Made by a program: the position numbers and the translations under genes | Shown here: positions 12,958 through 56,497 of the stretch, piece after piece | How the letters are laid out: each line of letters starts with the position of its first letter | Numbering within the stretch: position 1 is the stretch's first letter | The notes under the pieces: model-generated | Told to the model about the DNA's origin: nothing | What the model saw: only the letters and a program-made list of their open reading frames with translations | Databases searched by the model: none | Source of the DNA: a virus | Taxonomy: Duplodnaviria > Caudoviricetes | DNA: 64,000 bases | Virus record (IMG/VR): IMGVR_UViG_3300021431_004524 | Span: 171,654-235,653 of that record | Direction: 5' to 3' (one strand)

Positions 12958-14946
12958 ATGGCAGTATTAAAATACAAAAATGGTTCGGGACAGTATGTTC
13001 CCATCTCAAATTATACCGTTCAGCCTATTGACCCCGTTCAAACGACTGGTAGTTCTACCACAGCAATTATGTCTCAGAACGCAGTTACGGTAGCCCTTAA
13101 CGCTAAGGCAAACTCTGCTGATGTCTATACACAAACAGAGGCTAATAACCTTATCTTTGGACAGAATACCGTTCCAAGCGGAACCGGTGCCGCAACAAAC
13201 GTACAGCAACTTATCAATAAGACCGTCTATGGTACAACAACACCTTCTTCTGCTCAGAAAGAAGCAAACGTCGTAACAACTGAGAATCTTGCGACTACTC
13301 TTAGCGGATATGCAACAACAAGTGCCATCGCAGACTTCTTCGACGGTGCGGAATATACAAACGGTACAGGTACACTTGCAGGCAAGAAAGTAATTGCCTT
13401 CAAACATGGCTCTACTGTTAAGGTTCAACTCGATGCGACAGACTTCGTTAAGGACGGCATGCTTACAAATGCAGAAATAAAGGACGTTACCATCTCAGGA
13501 CAAAGCGTTAAATGCCTTGTGCTTACATTCAATACCGATTCAGGTAAGAGCGACATCAATATTCCTGTTGAGGATATTTTTGATGCAAGCAACTATGTTG
13601 CAAAGGGTGAAGTTGATGAAATCGTCGCTGAGTCAGTGGCAGAAGCAGTGTCTCCTGAAGGAGGTACTCAAACAGAGGCTCAGAAAGCATTAACAGATGC
13701 GATTTCTGATGCCGTCGCAAAGGCTATCAAAGATGCTCTTGCTCCCGGTTCACAAGATACGACAGTTGTTCAGCAGATTGATAACACTATTACTAAGTAT
13801 GTATATACACCTCAAGGTGGTAGCCAAATACAACTTACTGATGTAATGACTGCAAGCCATACACATAGTAATATGGGTGTATTGGAAGGTATTACAGCAG
13901 AAAAGGTTAGTGCATGGGATAACGCATCTGCCGGTGGCGTAACTAATGTTTCATATAACACGACTGACAAGGAAATTACTAAGACAGTAGGTGGAAAAAC
14001 AACTTCAGTCGTAAGTGTTGCTACCTTGAAGACCGACATGAGACTTTCAAGCACAGATGTCGGCCTCGGTAACGTAGGTAACTTCAAGGCCGTTTCAACA
14101 CTTGCAAACCAGGGACTTACTTCAGCAGAACAAGCAAATGCACGTGCAAACATCGGTGCCGGCACTTCTACATTCAGTGGTAATTACAGCGATTTGAATG
14201 GTAAACCTGCTCTCGGTGATGCCGCAGCAAAAGCCGTTGACACTTCAATTGATGCTTCAAGTTCATCAACAAATATCCCAACTTCATCAGCAGTCGCAAG
14301 TTTCGTTGAAGGTAAGGGTTATTCAACCACTAATACAACTTATAAACTTACTATCGGTGATACCACAAACGGTGATAGTGCTAACGGTGTAGACCTTGGT
14401 ACACTTAAAAGCAAGGCAGCAGCCGCTTCAGGCACAGAGCTTTCACTTGTTACAACCGGTGAGAAGGATGTTTGGAACAACAAACAGGATGCTATTGCGT
14501 TCAACACTGCTTATAACGCAAACACCAACAAGGCCGCAACAATGAGTGATGTGCCAAAAATCGGTACAGCTGCCGGAACCGCATTTGACGGTGCTGACGG
14601 TGCTACTGCAAAGGCCGAAACAGATTTCTTGACAGGTTCTAACGGTACAGACACGACTCCACTTACAAGCGTTGCAAATATTCCTGTCGACAAACGTCTT
14701 GTACGTGTAAATCTTAGTGGCGATGATAATTTCACCCTGGAAAGTTTACCTGCTGCCGGACATGAAATACATATCATCGTTAAGGCAACTGACGCAGTTA
14801 CAATTACCATACCATCTAGCACATCTGAGAATTTCTATGAGTGTCTGAATGACAGCACATCAATGAATATTGCAAGTGGCAAATACGGTGAAATCAACGT
14901 AATCTCAGATGGCGATAAAGCATATATCCGTTATCTTGGCGCATAA
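12958..14946 (+). CDS. Tail fibre protein
   Basis: VQTTGSSTTAIMSQNAVT, DVGLGNVGN, QANARANIGA, FSGNYSDL and WNNKQDA fibre motifs. Confidence 0.75.
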   Translation: MAVLKYKNGSGQYVPISNYTVQPIDPVQTTGSSTTAIMSQNAVTVALNAKANSADVYTQTEANNLIFGQNTVPSGTGAATNVQQLINKTVYGTTTPSSAQKEANVVTTENLATTLSGYATTSAIADFFDGAEYTNGTGTLAGKKVIAFKHGSTVKVQLDATDFVKDGMLTNAEIKDVTISGQSVKCLVLTFNTDSGKSDINIPVEDIFDASNYVAKGEVDEIVAESVAEAVSPEGGTQTEAQKALTDAISDAVAKAIKDALAPGSQDTTVVQQIDNTITKYVYTPQGGSQIQLTDVMTASHTHSNMGVLEGITAEKVSAWDNASAGGVTNVSYNTTDKEITKTVGGKTTSVVSVATLKTDMRLSSTDVGLGNVGNFKAVSTLANQGLTSAEQANARANIGAGTSTFSGNYSDLNGKPALGDAAAKAVDTSIDASSSSTNIPTSSAVASFVEGKGYSTTNTTYKLTIGDTTNGDSANGVDLGTLKSKAAAASGTELSLVTTGEKDVWNNKQDAIAFNTAYNANTNKAATMSDVPKIGTAAGTAFDGADGATAKAETDFLTGSNGTDTTPLTSVANIPVDKRLVRVNLSGDDNFTLESLPAAGHEIHIIVKATDAVTITIPSSTSENFYECLNDSTSMNIASGKYGEINVISDGDKAYIRYLGA

Positions 14947-25879: not shown

Positions 25880-26275
25880 TTAATCATAGTCTCCATATTC
25901 AAACAAATATGCAAGTTTTTCAAAGTTTTGTGAAGCATATCTGAATGCTTCATTATAGTTTTTGAATCTTTTAAAATCTATCCATCCTTTTTTACCGTCA
26001 AGTAAGCCACCCCCCTCACTTGGTTGCATTCCGTATTCTACATCTGGTAAGATATAAATTTCTTCAACTGGAGCAAGCAAGTTTTTCTCGACATAAAGCA
26101 AATAGCCTATTTCTTTACCTCTATATATAATAGTTTGTCTATGTCTACCTTTACCCAAGTCTTGTGAATCATCATAACTAAATTCGTCTTCAGATTCTCT
26201 CAACACTCTACGTACTGATTCCATAACGATTCTATGTAAATCTGCTTCTGTCAATCTTATCAATTTCTTATTCAT
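25880..26275 (-). CDS. Hypothetical with LTE/xxE leader (putative virion internal protein)
   Basis: MNKKLIRLTEADLHRIVMESVRRVLRE; CTGATATTTATAG at 26297-26309. Confidence 0.7.
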   Translation of the reverse strand: MNKKLIRLTEADLHRIVMESVRRVLRESEDEFSYDDSQDLGKGRHRQTIIYRGKEIGYLLYVEKNLLAPVEEIYILPDVEYGMQPSEGGGLLDGKKGWIDFKRFKNYNEAFRYASQNFEKLAYLFEYGDYD

Positions 26276-42179: not shown

Positions 42180-43979
42180 TTATGCCTCATCAGTTGTATC
42201 ACCATAACCCTCAGCAGCCTCAATATCAACAGCTCCGGAATCATAGACAAGGGCTTCTTTAAGTGTAAAACTTACACTCTTTAATTTCTCAGCACGAAGT
42301 ACAGTATCACCGGCTTTACGAAGAACAAATCCTTCTCTTGGTGAATCCGGGAAGTTCTTACAGAGTGGTTCCGGTTCCTCCATGCCAAAATGTTCCTTAT
42401 CGTTCTTCATACGTTCCAACAAAGCCTCATGCCAATGGTTCTCAGTGTCCAAATCGGGATAAAGTTCTTCAAGAGTACCGTGATAAAGTATATCGATTGG
42501 GTGGATACGCTTCCAATTATCATTACCTTCTGCTTTCATCCTTTCAATTAACTTGTTAGTCCAATCAAGAACCTCAGATACCTCCCACTCTTTCTTAGTT
42601 CCATCTTCATTAGTAGTTGTAATACGATAGAACATGACAATATTCTCACCTTCAGGGCATCCATAATCGTAAGCCTTCTGAATCATTGATTGTTCACCAG
42701 TAAGATAGCCACAGATTTCACCATATACTGTCATACCTTCATCAAGATATGGATAGATAATATCACCATACTCAGTCCACAAGTCAGCATTATAGTAACC
42801 ACCAGTTACATCTTGATTGATGTATTTATTCTTAATTACCTTACGTGAAGCATATACAGGGCCATATACGACCTCACTATCAGTAATTCTAAGTGATTTG
42901 AACAGATGTGTGAAATCAACAAACTTGTTAAACGTTCTCTTGAAGAACGGAAGTTTAATTGGTTGATTTACATGAAGTTTGCCAATGATACAACTTGTTC
43001 CGTGTAGTTTAACACTAATATCTACAATATCATCCGGTTTGAAATACTGAATATCTTTATTCAACTGGCTTGTGCTGTAGTGGAAGAAGAATTCGCCATC
43101 AATCATGCGGTCAAATCTCTTAATTGTTTTCTGTGCCTTATTCTTATTACTCTTCTTCTGAGTTTCCGCCGGCATAGGTGGAATATATACCTTAACGAAC
43201 AAATCACCGTTTACAGTGTCGAACTCTTGGCCAACGTATGCTTCAATATCTTCCATCGTAATAGATGAGTCATATTTAATCAAATCCTCTGGTGCAAACA
43301 AAACACCAAATGAAGGGGTATTTCTAAGAGTAAGACAACGAACGCGGCCATACTTGTTGAAGAAGCCACAATGTTTCTTAACCTCTGCAATAATGTCAGC
43401 ACCAGACTTAACAATATCCTCTACTTCTTTCTTCAAGTTGGTATAGGTTGTGGTCTTTGCGATTGCACGTGCTGTATAATCGTCAGCCTGCTTCTGCAAA
43501 GTATCAATTTCAGCCTTCTTGATACCGTACTCTTCAGATGAACTATCAAGAGACTCAAGGTCTTTTGTCATCTTCTTAATCTGTTTGTTAATCTTAGCAG
43601 CCTTCTTGGTGAGATTATCCATTGAAGCCTTTACGTTCTTTGCCTCATTACGGATAGCATCAGCCTTTGCCTTGATTGGTTCATAAGGCTTATAGATTTC
43701 ATCAACTTCTTCCTTATTGGCATTCTTCTCACGGCAACTAATCTCATAAAGGTTATTAACGGAAAGGAATTTCTCATTAAGTTGCGTCTCATTAGCGGCA
43801 TATATCATAATGTCGCCTTCCTTTACTTGGTCTTTACGTACCACAATCTGTGTACCAAACACATCTGTTTTAGCAAGGAAATCAGAACCCTCAATTGGGG
43901 TAAGTTCACCAACACGTACAATAGCGGCACTATATTCACTATTGAATGCTTCACTTTTAGTAAATACGTTTTTTTCCAT
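42180..43979 (-). CDS. RNA ligase (Rnl2/DRB0094-like) with a coiled-coil insertion
   Basis: TPIEGSD N-domain, KLHGTS, YGEICG, REGFVLR, KLKS. Confidence 0.8.
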   Translation of the reverse strand: MEKNVFTKSEAFNSEYSAAIVRVGELTPIEGSDFLAKTDVFGTQIVVRKDQVKEGDIMIYAANETQLNEKFLSVNNLYEISCREKNANKEEVDEIYKPYEPIKAKADAIRNEAKNVKASMDNLTKKAAKINKQIKKMTKDLESLDSSSEEYGIKKAEIDTLQKQADDYTARAIAKTTTYTNLKKEVEDIVKSGADIIAEVKKHCGFFNKYGRVRCLTLRNTPSFGVLFAPEDLIKYDSSITMEDIEAYVGQEFDTVNGDLFVKVYIPPMPAETQKKSNKNKAQKTIKRFDRMIDGEFFFHYSTSQLNKDIQYFKPDDIVDISVKLHGTSCIIGKLHVNQPIKLPFFKRTFNKFVDFTHLFKSLRITDSEVVYGPVYASRKVIKNKYINQDVTGGYYNADLWTEYGDIIYPYLDEGMTVYGEICGYLTGEQSMIQKAYDYGCPEGENIVMFYRITTTNEDGTKKEWEVSEVLDWTNKLIERMKAEGNDNWKRIHPIDILYHGTLEELYPDLDTENHWHEALLERMKNDKEHFGMEEPEPLCKNFPDSPREGFVLRKAGDTVLRAEKLKSVSFTLKEALVYDSGAVDIEAAEGYGDTTDEA

Positions 43980-48811: not shown

Positions 48812-50305
48812 TTAAGCAGATTCAGTATTTTCTTCACCATATACCTTGAAACCGTTATCCCTACGAATATTGGCAAATGCCTCAATCGGCGTAAACCAGT
48901 CCGTACCGTGTCCTTTGTAATCACCGCATTTAATGTCGTAAGGTTTGTCTAACTGATATGATGATTTGTATGCAAAGCCCTCGACGGCATCAATATACAT
49001 ACTATACTCGCCCTCATTTAAGGTAATTGTCTTGTCAGTCTCAAAATTATTTTCAAGCCAATCCTTATATGTGTTAGCAAACGTAGTATCAATACTAACA
49101 CATAAATCTTCACCGAACAACTTGGTTAATTCATCATCAGTGAATGTCTTATGTTCTTGTGTCTTTCCTCGCCCATTAGTCTTATAACCCAAGAAAAGGA
49201 AATCGAAATACTTATATTGCTCTTCAATCTTCTGTATAAATTCCCTTGTCTTCTCAACGCCAAGAAGTTCAGGTATCAGATGAATTGTAATCTGCTTATA
49301 GCCATCACGATTGAATGAGGACTTAAAATCGCCAAGAATATCAATATCTTTCTCATCAGTTACGGATACACCTATTGCAGTGACATAATCCTTAAATAAT
49401 TTAAGATATTTCTCGTTTGAAAGAATTTCTTTGCAGTCTTTTGCATTAATGGTCGTATTAATAATGTGACCACATTCTTTCATGTACTTGAACAACTCTT
49501 CAAGATGTGGATAAAGAAGTATGTTTCCACCGCCAACTGAGAACTCAACACGTCTGTCATAATGGTCATATTCATTTGACGATAAACATCTAATTATACC
49601 CTTAAGTTTGAGGAAATCGGCCTCTTTCTCCTTCATTGAAGAGTCCATGAAACAGAACGGGCAACCATGTTGGCACTTGTTAGTGATGCGAAGGTCAACA
49701 AGTTCCGGATATGATGGAACACAGTCACCTTTTTCGGTCTTGAAACGAATTCTTCCATTCCATCCGTACCCAATCCAATAGTTACCGTTCTTTACTACAC
49801 CTTTTTGGGCATTACCAATTCCAATATCATCAGGCAATGCTATTTCTTTATGCCCCTCTTTTGTCTCATATACAAATTCCATTTCATCAGAACCACCGAC
49901 AATAATAATGTCATCATCATCAATTACGTTTTTAAGGAAATCAATACTGGCTTCAAGTTCTGTGCCTTTTCTGAAACTAAGTGAACCTCTGGTATACATA
50001 CCGAACGTTTCATACTGACCGTCTTCCTTTGCTTTCTTGGCAAGTTCAGAGTATTGTTTCATTTCCGGATAATACTGACACATTATGTCGAATAGTATCT
50101 CATTCCAAAATATATTCGCAGCGACGTACTTAATCTTAGCCTCTCTTGAAGCAGCAATCGTCTCGTCAAACCTATCATAATAGTTTAGTTTAAAGATATT
50201 CAAATCCTTAAACATTTCATCCTTATTACGATAGATTATTGAATGTGTTGAACTACTGTTGGTTGCAAAACCCTTTCTGAAATTCTTTAAATAAACTGCT
50301 CTCAT
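48812..50305 (-). CDS. Radical SAM protein with an N-terminal TNSSSTHS domain
   Basis: CQHGCPFC, SVGGGN; N-terminal GFATNSSSTHS. Confidence 0.85.
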   Translation of the reverse strand: MRAVYLKNFRKGFATNSSSTHSIIYRNKDEMFKDLNIFKLNYYDRFDETIAASREAKIKYVAANIFWNEILFDIMCQYYPEMKQYSELAKKAKEDGQYETFGMYTRGSLSFRKGTELEASIDFLKNVIDDDDIIIVGGSDEMEFVYETKEGHKEIALPDDIGIGNAQKGVVKNGNYWIGYGWNGRIRFKTEKGDCVPSYPELVDLRITNKCQHGCPFCFMDSSMKEKEADFLKLKGIIRCLSSNEYDHYDRRVEFSVGGGNILLYPHLEELFKYMKECGHIINTTINAKDCKEILSNEKYLKLFKDYVTAIGVSVTDEKDIDILGDFKSSFNRDGYKQITIHLIPELLGVEKTREFIQKIEEQYKYFDFLFLGYKTNGRGKTQEHKTFTDDELTKLFGEDLCVSIDTTFANTYKDWLENNFETDKTITLNEGEYSMYIDAVEGFAYKSSYQLDKPYDIKCGDYKGHGTDWFTPIEAFANIRRDNGFKVYGEENTESA

Positions 50306-50317
50306 ATTAATTTATCT

Positions 50318-51481
50318 TTAATGCTTAAATTGCTTATCCCAAATCATCTCATTATATTCCGTAGGTTCTGGGAAATCAAACTGACTCCACATACGGTCAA
50401 TTACCTCTAACGGCATCATTCCCTTACGTCTGTCTTTATATGTCTGCAAGTCAGGTGCTTCTATATACACATATACAATTCTCGGCATGAACCTTAATGT
50501 CATATCAGTATATGCATCACGATACATCTTACGGACATTAGTGTTGTCAATAACAAAATCCTGCTTATTCTTACAACACTCCAACATTCTCTCATTGAAT
50601 ATCTCCGTTACATGACTTTCCTGTTCCTTATTACCTTGTGGCTTCTCACCCTTGATACCAATCTCTGTACGTATAAGGTCACGGCTAATCTGAACGGCAT
50701 CTTTAAGACACTTCTCAATATAATACGATTTACCACTACCAGGCACGCCTATCATTACATACATGGTGAATTGACCGTAATCCTTTGGCAATGCACATCC
50801 TTCCGGGAACGGTCTGTCCTTGAAATGGAAGAACCTTATTTTTTCATATTCATTGTTAAACTCATAAGGGGTTTCATAACAATTCAATCCTTCGGCAAGT
50901 GACTTGATACGTTCCTCTTTTTCCGCAATAAACTCTTCATCCTCTTCATCGTTCTTAGAGCCAAGAGAATCACAGATATTAAGGATAAGCATATCCTTAA
51001 CCCTTACCCTACCATGAGATAACTGTATCATCTTACGGGTAGACATTTCCTCCTTATCAAAGATATGGTGTAAATCCATGTGATGACGTACCATATAGCA
51101 AACCTTCTCACGTAATGTAAATTCCTCATCAAAGAATAGCCTACGTGTAATCTTAGCACCTACAAGCCCATGACACTTTGTAGTGTAATCACCCTTTTCC
51201 TCATCGAACTTGGTGGTTGAAGGCTTTCCAAGGTCATGGCATATTGCGGCAGACATCATCATAATGTAATATTCATTGTCTGATGGCTCAACGTTCTCAC
51301 GGTTAAGAAGATATGAACGCATAGTATCTGTCACAGCAATCTCATGATTTCGTACATTTCCCTCTTTGTGCCATGTCTTAGATTGTTCACAGGTTTCCAT
51401 ATCCTTGAATTCCTTGATTGAGAAAATCTTATCCCAATCCGGAAGCCATGTCTCTTGATTAAATAATTCCTTAAACTTCAT
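50318..51481 (-). CDS. HD-domain phosphohydrolase fused to a polynucleotide kinase (AAA_33)
   Basis: WHKEG, CHDLGK, RHHM; GVPGSGKS, ISRD, DNTN. Confidence 0.85.
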   Translation of the reverse strand: MKFKELFNQETWLPDWDKIFSIKEFKDMETCEQSKTWHKEGNVRNHEIAVTDTMRSYLLNRENVEPSDNEYYIMMMSAAICHDLGKPSTTKFDEEKGDYTTKCHGLVGAKITRRLFFDEEFTLREKVCYMVRHHMDLHHIFDKEEMSTRKMIQLSHGRVRVKDMLILNICDSLGSKNDEEDEEFIAEKEERIKSLAEGLNCYETPYEFNNEYEKIRFFHFKDRPFPEGCALPKDYGQFTMYVMIGVPGSGKSYYIEKCLKDAVQISRDLIRTEIGIKGEKPQGNKEQESHVTEIFNERMLECCKNKQDFVIDNTNVRKMYRDAYTDMTLRFMPRIVYVYIEAPDLQTYKDRRKGMMPLEVIDRMWSQFDFPEPTEYNEMIWDKQFKH

Positions 51482-52365: not shown

Positions 52366-52854
52366 TTAGAAATCATAACGTTCACCCATATCTTTCTTTA
52401 TCGTACATTCTCCATATTTCTTAATTATAAGATTCCTTTGCTCTGTAAGAGCATTTTTCAAATCTTCTATATCTTCATAATCGACATATAAACATTCATA
52501 TTCATATTCTCCTAAATCCTCGACTATAATATTAATGATTTCTAAACGGATATGTTTCTCAAAATCATAATAGCCAAACCTCATTTCTCCGGCTGGTCCT
52601 TTGATTTTTACATAAATTTCATCACCATTAATTTTTGTATAGCGGCTAAAAGAGCCATTACTATTAAAAATAGGCTTAATTTCTGTTTCAGGAACAAAAA
52701 TCTCTGTTAAAAACGCATCATCAAAAAGGTTTCCTATTGGTTTTGGTTCCTTGACAATATATCTTTCGAATGGATAATGTTCATTAAAAACGCTTAAAAA
52801 ATCTTCATCATAATTCATAAATTTATTCTCCCCATTTATTAATTTTTCCTTCAA
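52366..52854 (-). CDS. Hypothetical
   Basis: ORF; true start may be the downstream Met. Confidence 0.55.
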   Translation of the reverse strand: MKEKLINGENKFMNYDEDFLSVFNEHYPFERYIVKEPKPIGNLFDDAFLTEIFVPETEIKPIFNSNGSFSRYTKINGDEIYVKIKGPAGEMRFGYYDFEKHIRLEIINIIVEDLGEYEYECLYVDYEDIEDLKNALTEQRNLIIKKYGECTIKKDMGERYDF

Positions 52855-53173
52855 TTAGCAAATAAAAATATTCATCTTCTGTTAATGCCGTTATCTTATC
52901 TGGTTTTTTAATCAATAATGGCTCTATTCCCATATACTCTATGCATTCCGCAGGTGTAATTCTGCCTTGTTCTGCATCTAAATGATGTTCTGAACACAAA
53001 GCCGCACCATTTGACAAATAATAACCGCCATCAGACCATAATTTTCTATCAAGTATATGGTGAGCATCTACAGCATCTTTACAACAACCAGGAACGCAGC
53101 ATCTACCATTATATTTAGCAAATACTTGTTTCTTAAATTCTTCTCTTGTTAGAACTCCATTATTAGTAGTCAT
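52823..53173 (-). CDS. HNH endonuclease
   Basis: CCVPGC...DAHHI...NGAALCSEHH. Confidence 0.8.
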   Translation of the reverse strand: MTTNNGVLTREEFKKQVFAKYNGRCCVPGCCKDAVDAHHILDRKLWSDGGYYLSNGAALCSEHHLDAEQGRITPAECIEYMGIEPLLIKKPDKITALTEDEYFYLLIEGKINKWGE

Positions 53174-53240: not shown

Positions 53241-53705
53241 CTAATCGTAATATCTAATTGTATAACTCATCATATTAGGAGAGTAGAGGAAATCAAGTAT
53301 TTTCTTCGCAAGGATTTCATACTTACCCTCTTTTGCAATTAAATACAGAAAAGTACTTGGTGCTGATTCATAATCGTTACACACCTCTTCCATTTCGACA
53401 TATAGCATCCATTCCGGTTTCTTAATCTCACCAACCATTATTTCATCTATTATTGTATGAACATAGTCAAGACGTTCTTCCTCTGTCTGACACTCACCGG
53501 TTAATTGAACCGGTATCTCCAATCGGTCAGGTGCTTCATTCCAATACTTATAGTTTGCATATGTAACGTCCTTGCAGAATACACCGTAATAGAATAAATC
53601 ATCAGGCGTAACGGACGGTATGTTGAACACAAGGAAAAACTCTTTAAGCATTTCCTTCAAAAACTCTATCGAATTACTTGAATATACATAAGTACCAATC
53701 TTCAT
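53241..53705 (-). CDS. Hypothetical (late-motif preceded)
   Basis: ATATTTAT at 53730-53737. Confidence 0.65.
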   Translation of the reverse strand: MKIGTYVYSSNSIEFLKEMLKEFFLVFNIPSVTPDDLFYYGVFCKDVTYANYKYWNEAPDRLEIPVQLTGECQTEEERLDYVHTIIDEIMVGEIKKPEWMLYVEMEEVCNDYESAPSTFLYLIAKEGKYEILAKKILDFLYSPNMMSYTIRYYD

Positions 53706-53773
53706 ATTAATAATATATAAGGTATAATAATAAATATTTTGTAAAAATAAATAAAATTTCTATTCTTTTTAAG

Positions 53774-54595: not shown

Positions 54596-54694
54596 AAATG
54601 ATTATTTATTTCCTTTTCCATATATCTTAAACAGAATAAAATGATTAAAGATTTTTGAATAGATTTTAATTTTTAAAGTTTAGTATATATAGTC

Positions 54695-54732
54695 AAAAAA
54701 AGGAGTGATTCTATGTGAATAGCGTCACTCCT
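54695..54732 (-). terminator. Intrinsic terminator
   Basis: AGGAGTGA...TCACTCCT followed by a T run on the minus strand. Confidence 0.75.
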
Positions 54733-54754: not shown

Positions 54755-55564
54755 TCATCCATTACCTATTTCCTGCCAATTGGCATCATATATCTTACCA
54801 TTTGTGTTATCCTTTATATTATATATCGGTACCGGTGTCATTGAATTAACAACGATTGCAGGACCTCCTTTCCAATACTGAGCAATATATGGGTATTTCT
54901 TGAATGCATTCATTAATGTGCCAAACCGTTCAATATCATTCTCAAAGTCATATACTTGATTAGGATTGACAAGACAATAGTATGTATATTGGCCCCCGTT
55001 CGATTGGTCACTGCCTCGTTCCTTACTTCCCCAAAAATAGATGCCTGTATCTGAATTATTGGAATATAGATTAGGCTGTCCCTTTTTAACGACACCATCG
55101 GTTATCTTATATGAGCTGTCATGTTTCAATACGACTTTATCACCCGACATTTCAAGTTGACTCAAGAACATTTGATGTTTCTGTTCTTGCTCGGCTGTTT
55201 TCTTTTTGCCAAGAAACGCTTCACCATAATATGTGTCACGGTATTGGTCATAAATCTGAAGATACTGTTTCTGATATGTAGGCACTTCAATTTCATAACC
55301 CGTACCATCGGGTTTGGTATTATATGCGGTCGCTCTATATCTGTATGTTCCGAAATCATCTGTCTGTGGGTAGTTAGGGTCAACCATAAGATAGGCATCA
55401 CCACCGGTTCCTATATTAGAACCGTTCTTGATGACACCTATATTAATCCAACCGGTCATATCCTTATCATTTAATCCCTCATTAAGAAGCCTAACATCCG
55501 GGTTAAGTTTCTCCATCCATTCATTTACATTATGTAACCAATCAGTGTTATTTACTATTCCCAT
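54755..55564 (-). CDS. Putative ART-fold protein carrying the shared VNEWMEKLNPD leader
   Basis: LKHDSS, GIYFW and YTYYC spacing resembles ART motifs; leader shared with 55555. Confidence 0.45.
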   Translation of the reverse strand: MGIVNNTDWLHNVNEWMEKLNPDVRLLNEGLNDKDMTGWINIGVIKNGSNIGTGGDAYLMVDPNYPQTDDFGTYRYRATAYNTKPDGTGYEIEVPTYQKQYLQIYDQYRDTYYGEAFLGKKKTAEQEQKHQMFLSQLEMSGDKVVLKHDSSYKITDGVVKKGQPNLYSNNSDTGIYFWGSKERGSDQSNGGQYTYYCLVNPNQVYDFENDIERFGTLMNAFKKYPYIAQYWKGGPAIVVNSMTPVPIYNIKDNTNGKIYDANWQEIGNG

Positions 55565-56466
55565 ATCATAACCTCACCTTTTCTTCTCATTCTTTCCGAT
55601 AACTGACAAGGCATTGGGTTTACATAGCATTCTCCAAACTGAATGTCATATGTATAACGTTTTCCAATACTATCGATGTCATTAAGATGTTCTTGATAAT
55701 ACTTCTCAAAACCATCGTTTGTTACAGGAATATTGTTTTGATGGCAATAAGCCTTGTACTTACCCATCAGTTTGGCACGTATTTCCTTGTCAACATTCTC
55801 CTTTGACTTGAATGAAGTGAAAAATTCTTGCTTCGGGTCGTTCTTCCAAGTCTTTTCACTTTCACGGCTATTCACCTTATTACCGTTTCTGTCAAGATAT
55901 ATTGCCGCTTGTCCGGGTGCTTTAATAAGAACACTGTCTTGGTCATATTTACCACAAAGTTCTAATGCAAATTGTTTTAATTCATCAAAATTCCTTGGCT
56001 GACCATTAGCATCGTAATTGAAGACCACGAATGATGGCTCATAGTCATCCTCAACACCGTTTGTACCTCTATAACCGCCATATGTAGGCAAGAATGAATA
56101 CCCACTCTTCTGCAAGTCACTGATAAGTGCCTTAGTCTGTGCATCGTTCCTCTCTTGTGGCATATCACTTCTGTTGGCACTGATGTTAATCATACCATTA
56201 TCGCCATGCTTTTGAAGAACTCTGTCAAGTGTTACTTCATCAATTCTTACGGGTTTGTTATGATTGCTTATAATTCCATAGAAACGGTTCATGACATCCT
56301 CTTTCAGTGTCTCAGCCCTTTCATGGAGTTTTCTGAATGCTTCCTTACGGTTTCTCTGGTCTTCCTCAATGCTTGCCTTTGCTTCATTAATCAACTTAAT
56401 GTCAGGATTAAGTTTTTCCATCCACTCGTTAACATCGCCTAACCAAGTTTTATTATTCTGTTGCAT
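55555..56466 (-). CDS. T3 gp0.3-like SAM lyase (SAMase) domain with N-terminal leader
   Basis: ISANRSD...N...GGYRG...YEPSF...LCGKYDQDSVL parallels T3 SAMase VSAFRSN...N...GCYRE...EE...ACNEWEQDCVL (T3 sequence recalled from memory). Confidence 0.65.
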   Translation of the reverse strand: MQQNNKTWLGDVNEWMEKLNPDIKLINEAKASIEEDQRNRKEAFRKLHERAETLKEDVMNRFYGIISNHNKPVRIDEVTLDRVLQKHGDNGMINISANRSDMPQERNDAQTKALISDLQKSGYSFLPTYGGYRGTNGVEDDYEPSFVVFNYDANGQPRNFDELKQFALELCGKYDQDSVLIKAPGQAAIYLDRNGNKVNSRESEKTWKNDPKQEFFTSFKSKENVDKEIRAKLMGKYKAYCHQNNIPVTNDGFEKYYQEHLNDIDSIGKRYTYDIQFGECYVNPMPCQLSERMRRKGEVMIWE

Positions 56467-56497
56467 GTTTTTAATATGTTTAAAGATAAATATGTCA

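Follow-up and report, generated by a model that had tools for sequence, protein, structure and literature searches.

A late-type gene pair for a leader-tagged SAM-lyase-family enzyme and a probable ADP-ribosyltransferase-fold protein in a T4-like megaphage: candidate cargo of the phage head

Introduction

Loading of anti-restriction proteins into the capsid and their delivery together with the DNA are known from the Dar proteins of phage P1. S-adenosylmethionine (SAM) lyases are, to our knowledge, known only as early-expressed counter-defence enzymes, and we know of no description of a SAM lyase that is packaged beforehand. Here we analyze two overlapping genes that encode a SAM-lyase-family enzyme (P0001) and a protein with a probable ADP-ribosyltransferase (ART) fold (P0002), each behind a similar N-terminal leader. 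They lie in the final 64 kb (positions 171,654 to 235,653; 64,000 nucleotides, in the following the window) of IMG/VR record IMGVR_UViG_3300021431_004524, a single viral contig of 235,653 bp with 34.6% G+C. Coordinates refer to the window unless the contig is named.

In phage T4, gp21 removes the short N-terminal targeting peptides of the internal proteins IPI-III and of Alt (PMC9958956). T4-type prohead proteases cleave after Glu (PMC5694885), and the T4 targeting sequence brings foreign proteins into the prohead core (PMC5694885, PMC9958956, PMC3012670). ARTs also occur, in a His-Tyr-Asp configuration, in polyvalent proteins, for which injection along with the DNA of phages or plasmids has been predicted (PMC5512222). 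The T3 SAM lyase (gp0.3, SAMase) and Svi3-3 are known to counter SAM-dependent type I restriction and BREX (PMC7877911; bioRxiv 10.1101/2023.02.27.530186), both of which need SAM according to the bioRxiv report. SAM-AMP is the signal of Bacteroides type III-B CorA systems (PMC12255297).

Results

Two overlapping genes with a common leader

Both genes are located on the minus strand. Gene 2 starts inside gene 1, with an overlap of 10 nt that likely couples their translation. The unit comprises the following features:

55555-56466, minus strand: gene 1, P0001, 303 aa, leader-tagged SAM-lyase-family enzyme (open reading frame (ORF), Pfam and fold)
54755-55564, minus strand: gene 2, P0002, 269 aa, leader-tagged protein with a probable ART fold (ORF and AlphaFold2 model)
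56383-56466, minus strand: class-A leader of P0001, aa 1-28, ...WLGDVNEWMEKLNPDIKLINE, ending in I-N-E
55478-55564, minus strand: class-A leader of P0002, aa 1-29, ...WLHNVNEWMEKLNPDVRLLNE, ending in L-N-E
55867-56238, minus strand: predicted SAM-lyase (PII-like) core of P0001, about aa 77-200 (Pfam, profile and fold)
54776-55192, minus strand: probable ART-superfamily domain of P0002, about aa 125-263, with H148, Y176 and D206 (fold)
56486-56494, minus strand: late-type promoter-like box CATATTTAT, 27 nt before the P0001 ATG
56486-56493, minus strand: ATATTTAT within the late-type box
54694-54732, minus strand: intrinsic-terminator-like hairpin (AGGAGUGA...UCACUCCU) followed by U7, 23 nt after the P0002 stop codon

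A first-pass annotation of this DNA had described two overlapping genes that are unrelated except for a leader of about 28 aa, and this description was borne out. The two leaders are identical in 18 of 26 residues (BLASTP E 3e-10), and the proteins show no similarity elsewhere. Among 22 aligned leader residues 16 are identical. Leaving aside three that are Trp or Met, nine of the remaining 13 are encoded by different codons. Because of these codon differences the leader peptide is held to be under purifying selection, and a recent DNA duplication is excluded. A helix is predicted at aa 8-19 of the P0001 leader, while residues 24-30 of the P0002 model have a predicted local distance difference test score (pLDDT) below 50, indicating a linker between leader helix and domain.

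P0001 belongs to the SAM-lyase family

P0001 matches Pfam family PF23780 at aa 95-199 with 42.5 bits (cut-off 28). Searches retrieved 132 homologues, and PF23780 was present in nearly all of the 120 among the matches listed. With a profile built from 89 homologues, the T3 SAM lyase was the sole sequence match in the PDB. The AlphaFold model of P0001 (pLDDT 82) was compared with known structures by Foldseek, and the best matches were the T3 SAM lyase (8bb1_E, E 4e-4), 7ock and Svi3-3 (6zm9, E 2.4e-3), all with a probability of 1.0. The C. botulinum SAM-AMP lyase (9gad) was found as a weaker match (probability 0.8-0.9, E 8e-2). The T3 SAMase motifs that had been noted in gene 1 were thus recovered by family, fold and catalytic motifs, and the suggested structural comparison with both T3 SAMase and Svi3-3 was positive.

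The core contains the motifs G130-G-Y132, E143-P-S145 and Q176-D-S178, which are conserved in 86-89 of the 89 homologues. Their spacing equals that of G56-x-Y58, E69-x-S71 and Q104-E105-S106 in Svi3-3, residues having been mapped by motif spacing and not by structural superposition. Gly56, Glu69 and Gln104 (Svi3-3 numbering) are the strictly conserved residues of the enzyme family, and Tyr58, Ser71, Glu105 and Ser106 line the active site (PMC7877911). A profile alignment that placed Glu68 of the T3 enzyme on a non-conserved column was judged to be a loop misalignment, since the Svi3-3 motif spacing fits the invariant residues exactly. Given its Pfam assignment, predicted fold and motifs, we are confident in regarding P0001 as a SAM-lyase-type enzyme, and because the active-site residues are conserved with matching spacing it is very probably catalytically active.

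P0001 shares the Pfam family, the PII-like fold and the three motifs with the T3 enzyme and Svi3-3. It is twice as long as T3 SAMase: some 75 residues are added at the N-terminus, the leader included, and some 100 conserved residues at the C-terminus. This C-terminal extension, which ends N283-P...R295..E298, carries the invariant residues N283, P284, R295 and E298. The T3 gene is moreover the first early gene, whereas P0001 lies behind a late-type promoter and is paired with, or in some phages fused to, an ART. Candidate AcrIIIB4, a SAM-AMP lyase of gut phages (PMC12255297), resembles P0001 in belonging to the SAM-lyase superfamily, in having an added N-terminal region and in a possible role against Bacteroides defences. 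It differs in that no close sequence relationship to P0001 was detectable (no match in the phage collection), and it was not reported to be tagged or packaged (PMC12255297).

P0002 probably adopts an ART fold of the His-Tyr-Asp type

To P0002 28 homologues were found, and its AlphaFold2 model reached a pLDDT of 85.6. In an exhaustive VIA-align comparison the top rows were nearly all chains of the ART superfamily, namely RES toxin (Z 5.8), diphtheria toxin (Z 5.7), Tpt1, ParT, PARPs and a cyanophage ejectosome protein, the best alignment covering 103 residues with Z 5.8 and a root-mean-square deviation of 3.6. Foldseek against the PDB yielded weak PARP matches only. Among viral protein models (BFVD), P0002 matched proteins annotated as 'large polyvalent protein associated', 'ART-PolyVal-like' and 'PolyVal ADP-ribosyltransferase' (E 1.2e-5 to 0.06, probability 0.9-1.0), and in addition a Flavobacterium phage structural protein.

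Within the P0002 family a candidate catalytic triad is conserved: H148 in LKHDSS (28 of 28 members), Y176 in GIYFWGS (27 of 28) and D206 in VYDFEN (26 of 27). These residues are located in or at the ends of predicted strands and in the right order, strands 1, 2 and 5 having been assigned by pattern and not by superposition. The fold assignment has to be weighed against several observations. P0002 matched no Pfam family at E <= 1 and no PDB sequence, none of the 29 family members had a match to a Pfam ART model, and the structural scores are modest, with Z below 6, and speak at the level of the fold only. On balance the model comparisons make an ART fold for P0002 quite probable, in line with the ART-like character proposed for gene 2, and the conserved triad suggests that it is of the His-Tyr-Asp (ART-PolyVal-like) type. 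A Tpt1-like reading was ruled out, as the family is without conserved Arg residues.

In common with ART-PolyVal and Tox-ART-HYD2 domains, P0002 would have His on strand 1, Tyr on strand 2 and Asp on strand 5, and delivery with DNA has been predicted for these proteins (Iyer et al. 2017, PMC5512222). In contrast to them, P0002 is a stand-alone protein of 269 aa with a leader and not a domain of a giant multidomain protein. A homologue on a 6.1-kb metagenome contig (P0139) is a natural fusion with an N-terminal ART-like and a C-terminal SAM-lyase domain, with no leader between the two, and a cluster of 59 viral proteins in the ESM Atlas shows the same combination. Such a fusion is not among the combinations listed in PMC5512222. 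Prediction of a complex between mature P0001 and mature P0002 gave a score of 0.00, which speaks neither for nor against binding.

Two of the 29 members of the P0002 family showed Pfam matches to DarA_C that are weak and below any reliable threshold (E 0.0025). DarA_C is the C-terminal domain of DarA, the head-packaged defence-against-restriction protein of phage P1.

The pair is probably transcribed as a late unit

The contig is about 60% complete (CheckV). Its start falls inside the gene for a T4 Gp23-type major capsid protein (MCP), and the head genes upstream are therefore missing from it. Since the contig is incomplete, head genes and protease were examined in relatives; phages with MCPs 58-94% identical are common in IMG/VR and include complete genomes of 344-412 kb. 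The phage collection gave no match, either by DNA or with the two proteins of the pair.

Upstream regions of the contig contain two dominant and cleanly separable classes of promoter-like sequences, a host-type box, (T)TTG...TAnnTTTG, and [AC]TATTTAT. In the window, the host-type box is found for example at the genes 52823-53173, 50318-51481 and 42180-43979, and the second box at 55555-56466, 53241-53705, 25880-26275 and 12958-14946. The host-type box precedes an RNA ligase gene, an HD/kinase gene and many small genes, and it is the one used by the metabolic genes around the pair. Within 70 nt in front of the contig's genes, [AC]TATTTAT is enriched 11-fold, and copies of [AC]TATTTAT(A/T) mostly lie 24-41 nt before an ATG. 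The copy in front of P0001 sits in the 31-nt gap that follows the stop codon of the gene upstream.

In a relative whose MCP fragment is 94% identical (L013), the TATTTAT box was found upstream of terL and the portal, protease, scaffold and MCP genes, and likewise in L014, L015, L017 and L056. On the contig it precedes all four tagged transcription units, compared with about 11% of all genes, and in the relatives 18 of 28 tagged genes, compared with 33 of 101 neighbouring genes. The association with head genes is drawn from the relatives and not from this contig, where PHROGs identified only tail sheath and homing endonucleases among the products of genes behind the box; two large homing-endonuclease genes also have it upstream. 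Downstream of gene 2, the hairpin has a free energy of -17.8 kcal/mol (z -3.56; none of 200 shuffled sequences was as stable). A consensus terminator scanner missed it owing to its long loop.

The promoter motif and the terminator that had been proposed for the pair can both be retained, and a late promoter is probable. Because the box is shared with head genes in the relatives and with the other tagged genes here, the pair would form a small late unit with its own terminator inside a block of early-type metabolic genes.

The leader is exchanged among orthologous proteins

Comparison of the N-termini of 148 homologues revealed at least three classes of leaders:

Class A: WLxxVNEWMEKLNPDV(K/R)L(I/L)NE
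Class B: MKKxIRLTESDLHxIVKESVxRVLxE
Class C: xIxKRxDFINKYDxxxxxY(R/K)LNE

Profile searches assigned 14 of 121 SAM-lyase homologues to class A, 42 to class B and one to class C, and among 29 ART homologues eight to class A and 14 to class C. Many unassigned homologues have shortened versions of a B-like helix. Single contigs pair a class-A leader on the lyase with a class-C leader on the ART (P0010/P0131, P0054/P0133 and P0007/P0141), and the class-A leader itself is conserved across homologues of 65-95% protein identity. The leader is thus a swappable module on orthologous domains, and the modularity proposed for it extends to two further, interchangeable classes, the commonest of which heads many unrelated proteins.

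Leaders of every class close with a hydrophobic residue, any residue and Glu. The P0002 family has an invariant Glu at this position (26 of the 26 members with an N-terminus) and, whatever the class, L, I or F at the hydrophobic position in every case. A [LIF]-x-E ending was present in 21 of 22 class-A and 34 of 42 class-B tags. The leader ends I-N-E28 of P0001 and L-N-E29 of P0002 therefore resemble a protease site as originally described, a resemblance that is one of sequence only.

Two genes for proteins of the SAM-lyase family were seen in a 363-kb relative (G003; L101 and L102). One encodes a 225-aa form with a class-B tag, the other a 256-aa form with a class-C-like leader, and the latter adjoins a TnpB-like ORF.

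Class-B tags are linked to the head module in relatives

Class-B sequences were found at three places in this contig, all outside the pair:

25880-26275, minus strand: 131-aa protein with class-B leader (MNKKLIRLTEADLHRIVMESVRRVLRE), late box at -31
contig 53259-53711: 150-aa protein with class-B leader
contig 142498-143154, plus strand: 218-aa ORF with the class-B tag sequence (GKRLIRLTESNLRMIIENSVNSVLKEMKIGK) at its very C-terminus, behind a late box, about 28.5 kb before the window

For GKRLIRLTESNLRMIIENSVNSVLKEMKIGK, a TTG-started mini-ORF of 28 aa consisting of the tag only is an alternative. The C-terminal copy may be what is left of a tagged gene that has been lost.

Five relatives of 344-412 kb, all with a completeness of 93% or more, gave 7-19 class-B matches per genome, to small proteins headed by the tag. 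Between the portal gene and the protease or scaffold genes of L014, L017, L023, L056 and L060 there are B-tagged genes encoding 86-275 aa; the majority share the strand of portal, scaffold and MCP, and two are opposite. In T4, the prohead-core proteins gp67 and gp68 are encoded between the portal and protease genes. Searches of 14 class-B-tagged proteins against Pfam and PHROGs returned one WG-repeat match only.

The gene order in L013 is terminase, Portal_T4, two small genes, Peptidase_S77 (91 bits), an acidic scaffold and Gp23. Homologues of the Peptidase_S77 gene adjoin the scaffold and MCP genes in L014, L017, L023, L056, L060 and L034, and judged by these matches a T4 gp21-type prohead protease is encoded in the lineage. 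The L013 MCP reads ...HLIYE/ATTADNSG, with I-Y-E/A about 60 residues from the start and about 25 residues before the conserved core, which we take to correspond to the position at which T4 gp23 is cleaved.

The idea that the tags direct proteins into the head has to be balanced against a number of findings. About half of the SAM-lyase homologues have no tag recognized by the profiles, hydrophobic-x-Glu is a common tripeptide, and the putative cut site of P0001 lies at the start of a predicted long helix and not in a linker. The prohead protease family PF03420 was not found on this contig, and the class-B sequence of the 218-aa ORF is C-terminal. With 26-30 residues, the tags are longer than the T4 targeting peptides of about 10-20 residues. 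Class A in particular is sparse: its profile had 7 matches, from about four cargo families, in 1.84 billion proteins, and none in the five relatives, where the class-C profile also found nothing; SAM-lyase genes occur in only one of these five. The 7 class-A matches add two further cargo types and a divergent variant ending LLFE. An exact back-translated class-A pattern had three matches in IMG/VR, all to the same two genes, and fuzzy pattern and profile searches located just the two copies of the pair in the contig. Class A is thus rare and not a general tag in this genome, and in this respect the broad use that the first-pass annotation had expected for the leader was not found. With the sequence and gene-order evidence from all classes considered, we slightly favour a head-targeting role for the tag.

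Genomic context and host

The phage is an uncultivated T4-like megaphage, most likely of gut or rumen Bacteroidales. A member of this order from gut or rumen is the most likely host because homologous proteins carry the source labels Porphyromonadaceae, Paludibacteraceae and Bacteroidales and because Bacteroidota-type TAnnTTTG promoter boxes lie upstream of many contig genes. Around the pair the window contains:

62735-64000, minus strand: MetK (S-adenosylmethionine synthetase), phage-encoded, extending past the contig end
53780-54595, plus strand: 271-aa Ser/Thr-rich protein, convergent, flanking the pair
53241-53705, minus strand: 154-aa protein behind a late box, flanking the pair
50318-51481, minus strand: HD-plus-kinase (PNK-like) protein, host-type promoter box
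48812-50305, minus strand: radical-SAM enzyme, about 4.5 kb from the pair
42180-43979, minus strand: RNA ligase, host-type promoter box

The phage accordingly carries a maker of SAM as well as a candidate destroyer. MetK is 36% identical to a MetK in L012, which itself lies two genes upstream of a SAM lyase-ART pair. The radical-SAM, HD-plus-kinase and RNA ligase genes lie in the early-type block beside the pair and suggest an RNA repair or modification module. In the relative L010 the 154-aa gene still adjoins the pair and the convergent gene is swapped for one encoding a different, 391-aa protein. Elsewhere on the contig (74141-74965, plus strand) an extremely acidic, low-complexity protein of 274 aa is encoded, the N-terminus of which weakly resembles a class-C leader (AQKRFQQISEY, E 0.08); it is possibly a core or internal protein.

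Discussion

We propose that the leader of P0001 and P0002 acts like the T4 capsid-targeting sequence (CTS). Both proteins would be made late and co-assemble into the prohead core by means of the tag, an amphipathic helix of about 28 residues with a hydrophobic-x-Glu end. A gp21-type (Peptidase_S77) prohead protease would clip after E28 in P0001 and E29 in P0002, and the mature enzymes would remain in the head and exit with the DNA. In the new host the lyase would destroy SAM, or the SAM-derived signal SAM-AMP, before phage genes are expressed, and the loss of SAM would blunt SAM-dependent defences; the ART would use NAD+ to modify a host target, as T4 Alt does. If the lyase were confined to the virion, the SAM metabolism of the phage itself, with MetK and the radical-SAM enzyme, would be spared. 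Packaging, cleavage, ejection, the substrates and the anti-defence effect are steps that we infer, and the mechanism as a whole, built on the analogy to T4, is put forward tentatively, its combined steps falling a little short of what we would call probable. One precedent speaks against it: the T3 SAM lyase, the sole characterised anti-restriction SAM lyase, acts early and is unpackaged.

The likeness to the T4 CTS is in an N-terminal tag on unrelated, non-essential proteins that ends at a site, here a putative one, cut after Glu, in a lineage with T4-type portal, S77 protease, scaffold and Gp23. Expression is late in T4 and probably also here, from a promoter-like box, and the T4 cargo (IPI, IPII, IPIII and Alt, processed by gp21) is defence-related and includes an ART (PMC3012670, PMC9958956). 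The differences are that here at least three sequence-unrelated, helical tag classes are swapped on the same cargo, and that the cargo would be a SAM lyase and an H-Y-D ART, while Alt is an R-S-E ART. A proposed likeness to P1 is the loading into the head; P1 uses a Dar hierarchy and not a short shared leader. The pair had been announced as a new system, a label that we do not keep, as its logic is known from the T4 capsid-targeting sequence, internal proteins and Alt and from polyvalent-protein ARTs. The novelty lies in the SAM-lyase cargo paired or fused with an H-Y-D ART, in the length of the tag and in the free exchange of three unrelated tag classes on the same cargo.

The competing explanation that survives best, if an unlikely one, is that the two enzymes are made late, stay in the cytoplasm and are never packaged, with the shared helix serving as a docking, oligomerisation or regulatory pro-segment. 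It might gather the tagged proteins into a common complex or hold them inactive, and the enzymes would act in the producing cell, for instance in a late shutdown of SAM-dependent methylation or NAD-dependent processes. The charged, amphipathic helix of the tag, modelled with low confidence, the one C-terminal copy and the many tagged proteins without recognisable function fit this explanation, as does the possession of MetK and a radical-SAM enzyme, by which the phage manages SAM within the infected cell. A cytoplasmic role leaves unexplained, however, why the junction has an invariant [LIF]-x-E in each of three unrelated leader classes, why tagged genes lie between portal and protease or scaffold genes in several relatives, and why the cargo includes an ART type characteristic of injected polyvalent proteins. 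A SAM lyase active late in the cytoplasm would also starve the phage's own SAM-using enzymes.

A further possibility accepts the packaged architecture and replaces the substrate: P0001 would be a SAM-AMP lyase and thus an anti-CRISPR against Bacteroides type III-B CorA systems. The C. botulinum SAM-AMP lyase was among the fold matches, Bacteroidales are the likely hosts, and MetK and the radical-SAM enzyme fit poorly with wholesale destruction of SAM. Furthermore, a human-gut phage protein of the superfamily with an extra N-terminal domain cleaves SAM-AMP and not SAM (PMC12255297). On the other hand, the T3 SAM lyase and Svi3-3 outrank the SAM-AMP lyase in the structural comparison (E 4e-4 and 2e-3 versus 8e-2), and a preference for SAM or SAM-AMP is not readable from the sequence of P0001. 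We regard this variant as rather improbable.

Very improbable is a third reading, in which the tag would be recognised by a modifying enzyme such as a radical-SAM maturase, or by a sorting machine other than the capsid. The radical-SAM gene of the window is close enough to invite it. By tblastn, however, no homologue of this protein was found in the examined loci of relatives with tagged clusters or head modules, the gene stands in a host-type promoter context, unlike the tagged genes, and the tags have neither the Cys/Ser/Thr pattern typical of maturase substrates nor the hydrophobic core of a signal peptide. That the leader is a functionless relic of a recent partial duplication or recombination between neighbours, as the adjacency of the genes and the mere two copies in the contig could suggest, is hardly credible in view of the codon differences (9 of 13 comparable identical residues), the conservation among homologues and the exchange of the leader as a unit for other classes.

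Returning to capsid delivery, a wider proposal, possible though doubtful in its full extent, is that gut or rumen T4-like megaphages use at least three interchangeable head-targeting tags of 25-30 residues to load a changeable capsid arsenal, here a SAM (or SAM-AMP) lyase and an H-Y-D ART. This arsenal might hit SAM-dependent defences and an NAD-dependent target at DNA entry, and the phage's own MetK would later restore SAM. If this is true, the defences met at DNA entry would be type I and type III restriction, BREX and SAM-AMP-signalling type III CRISPR, and a virion-delivered SAM lyase would act before restriction, BREX or CRISPR signalling starts, which would change the view of the timing of phage counter-defence. 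The natural ART and SAM-lyase fusion points to a functional link, an NAD-dependent combined with a SAM-dependent attack on the host. T4-style tags also serve to load foreign proteins into capsids. Most of the tagged proteins have no known function, and the interchangeable tags allow the probable injected proteome of abundant uncultured Bacteroidales megaphages to be listed from sequence.

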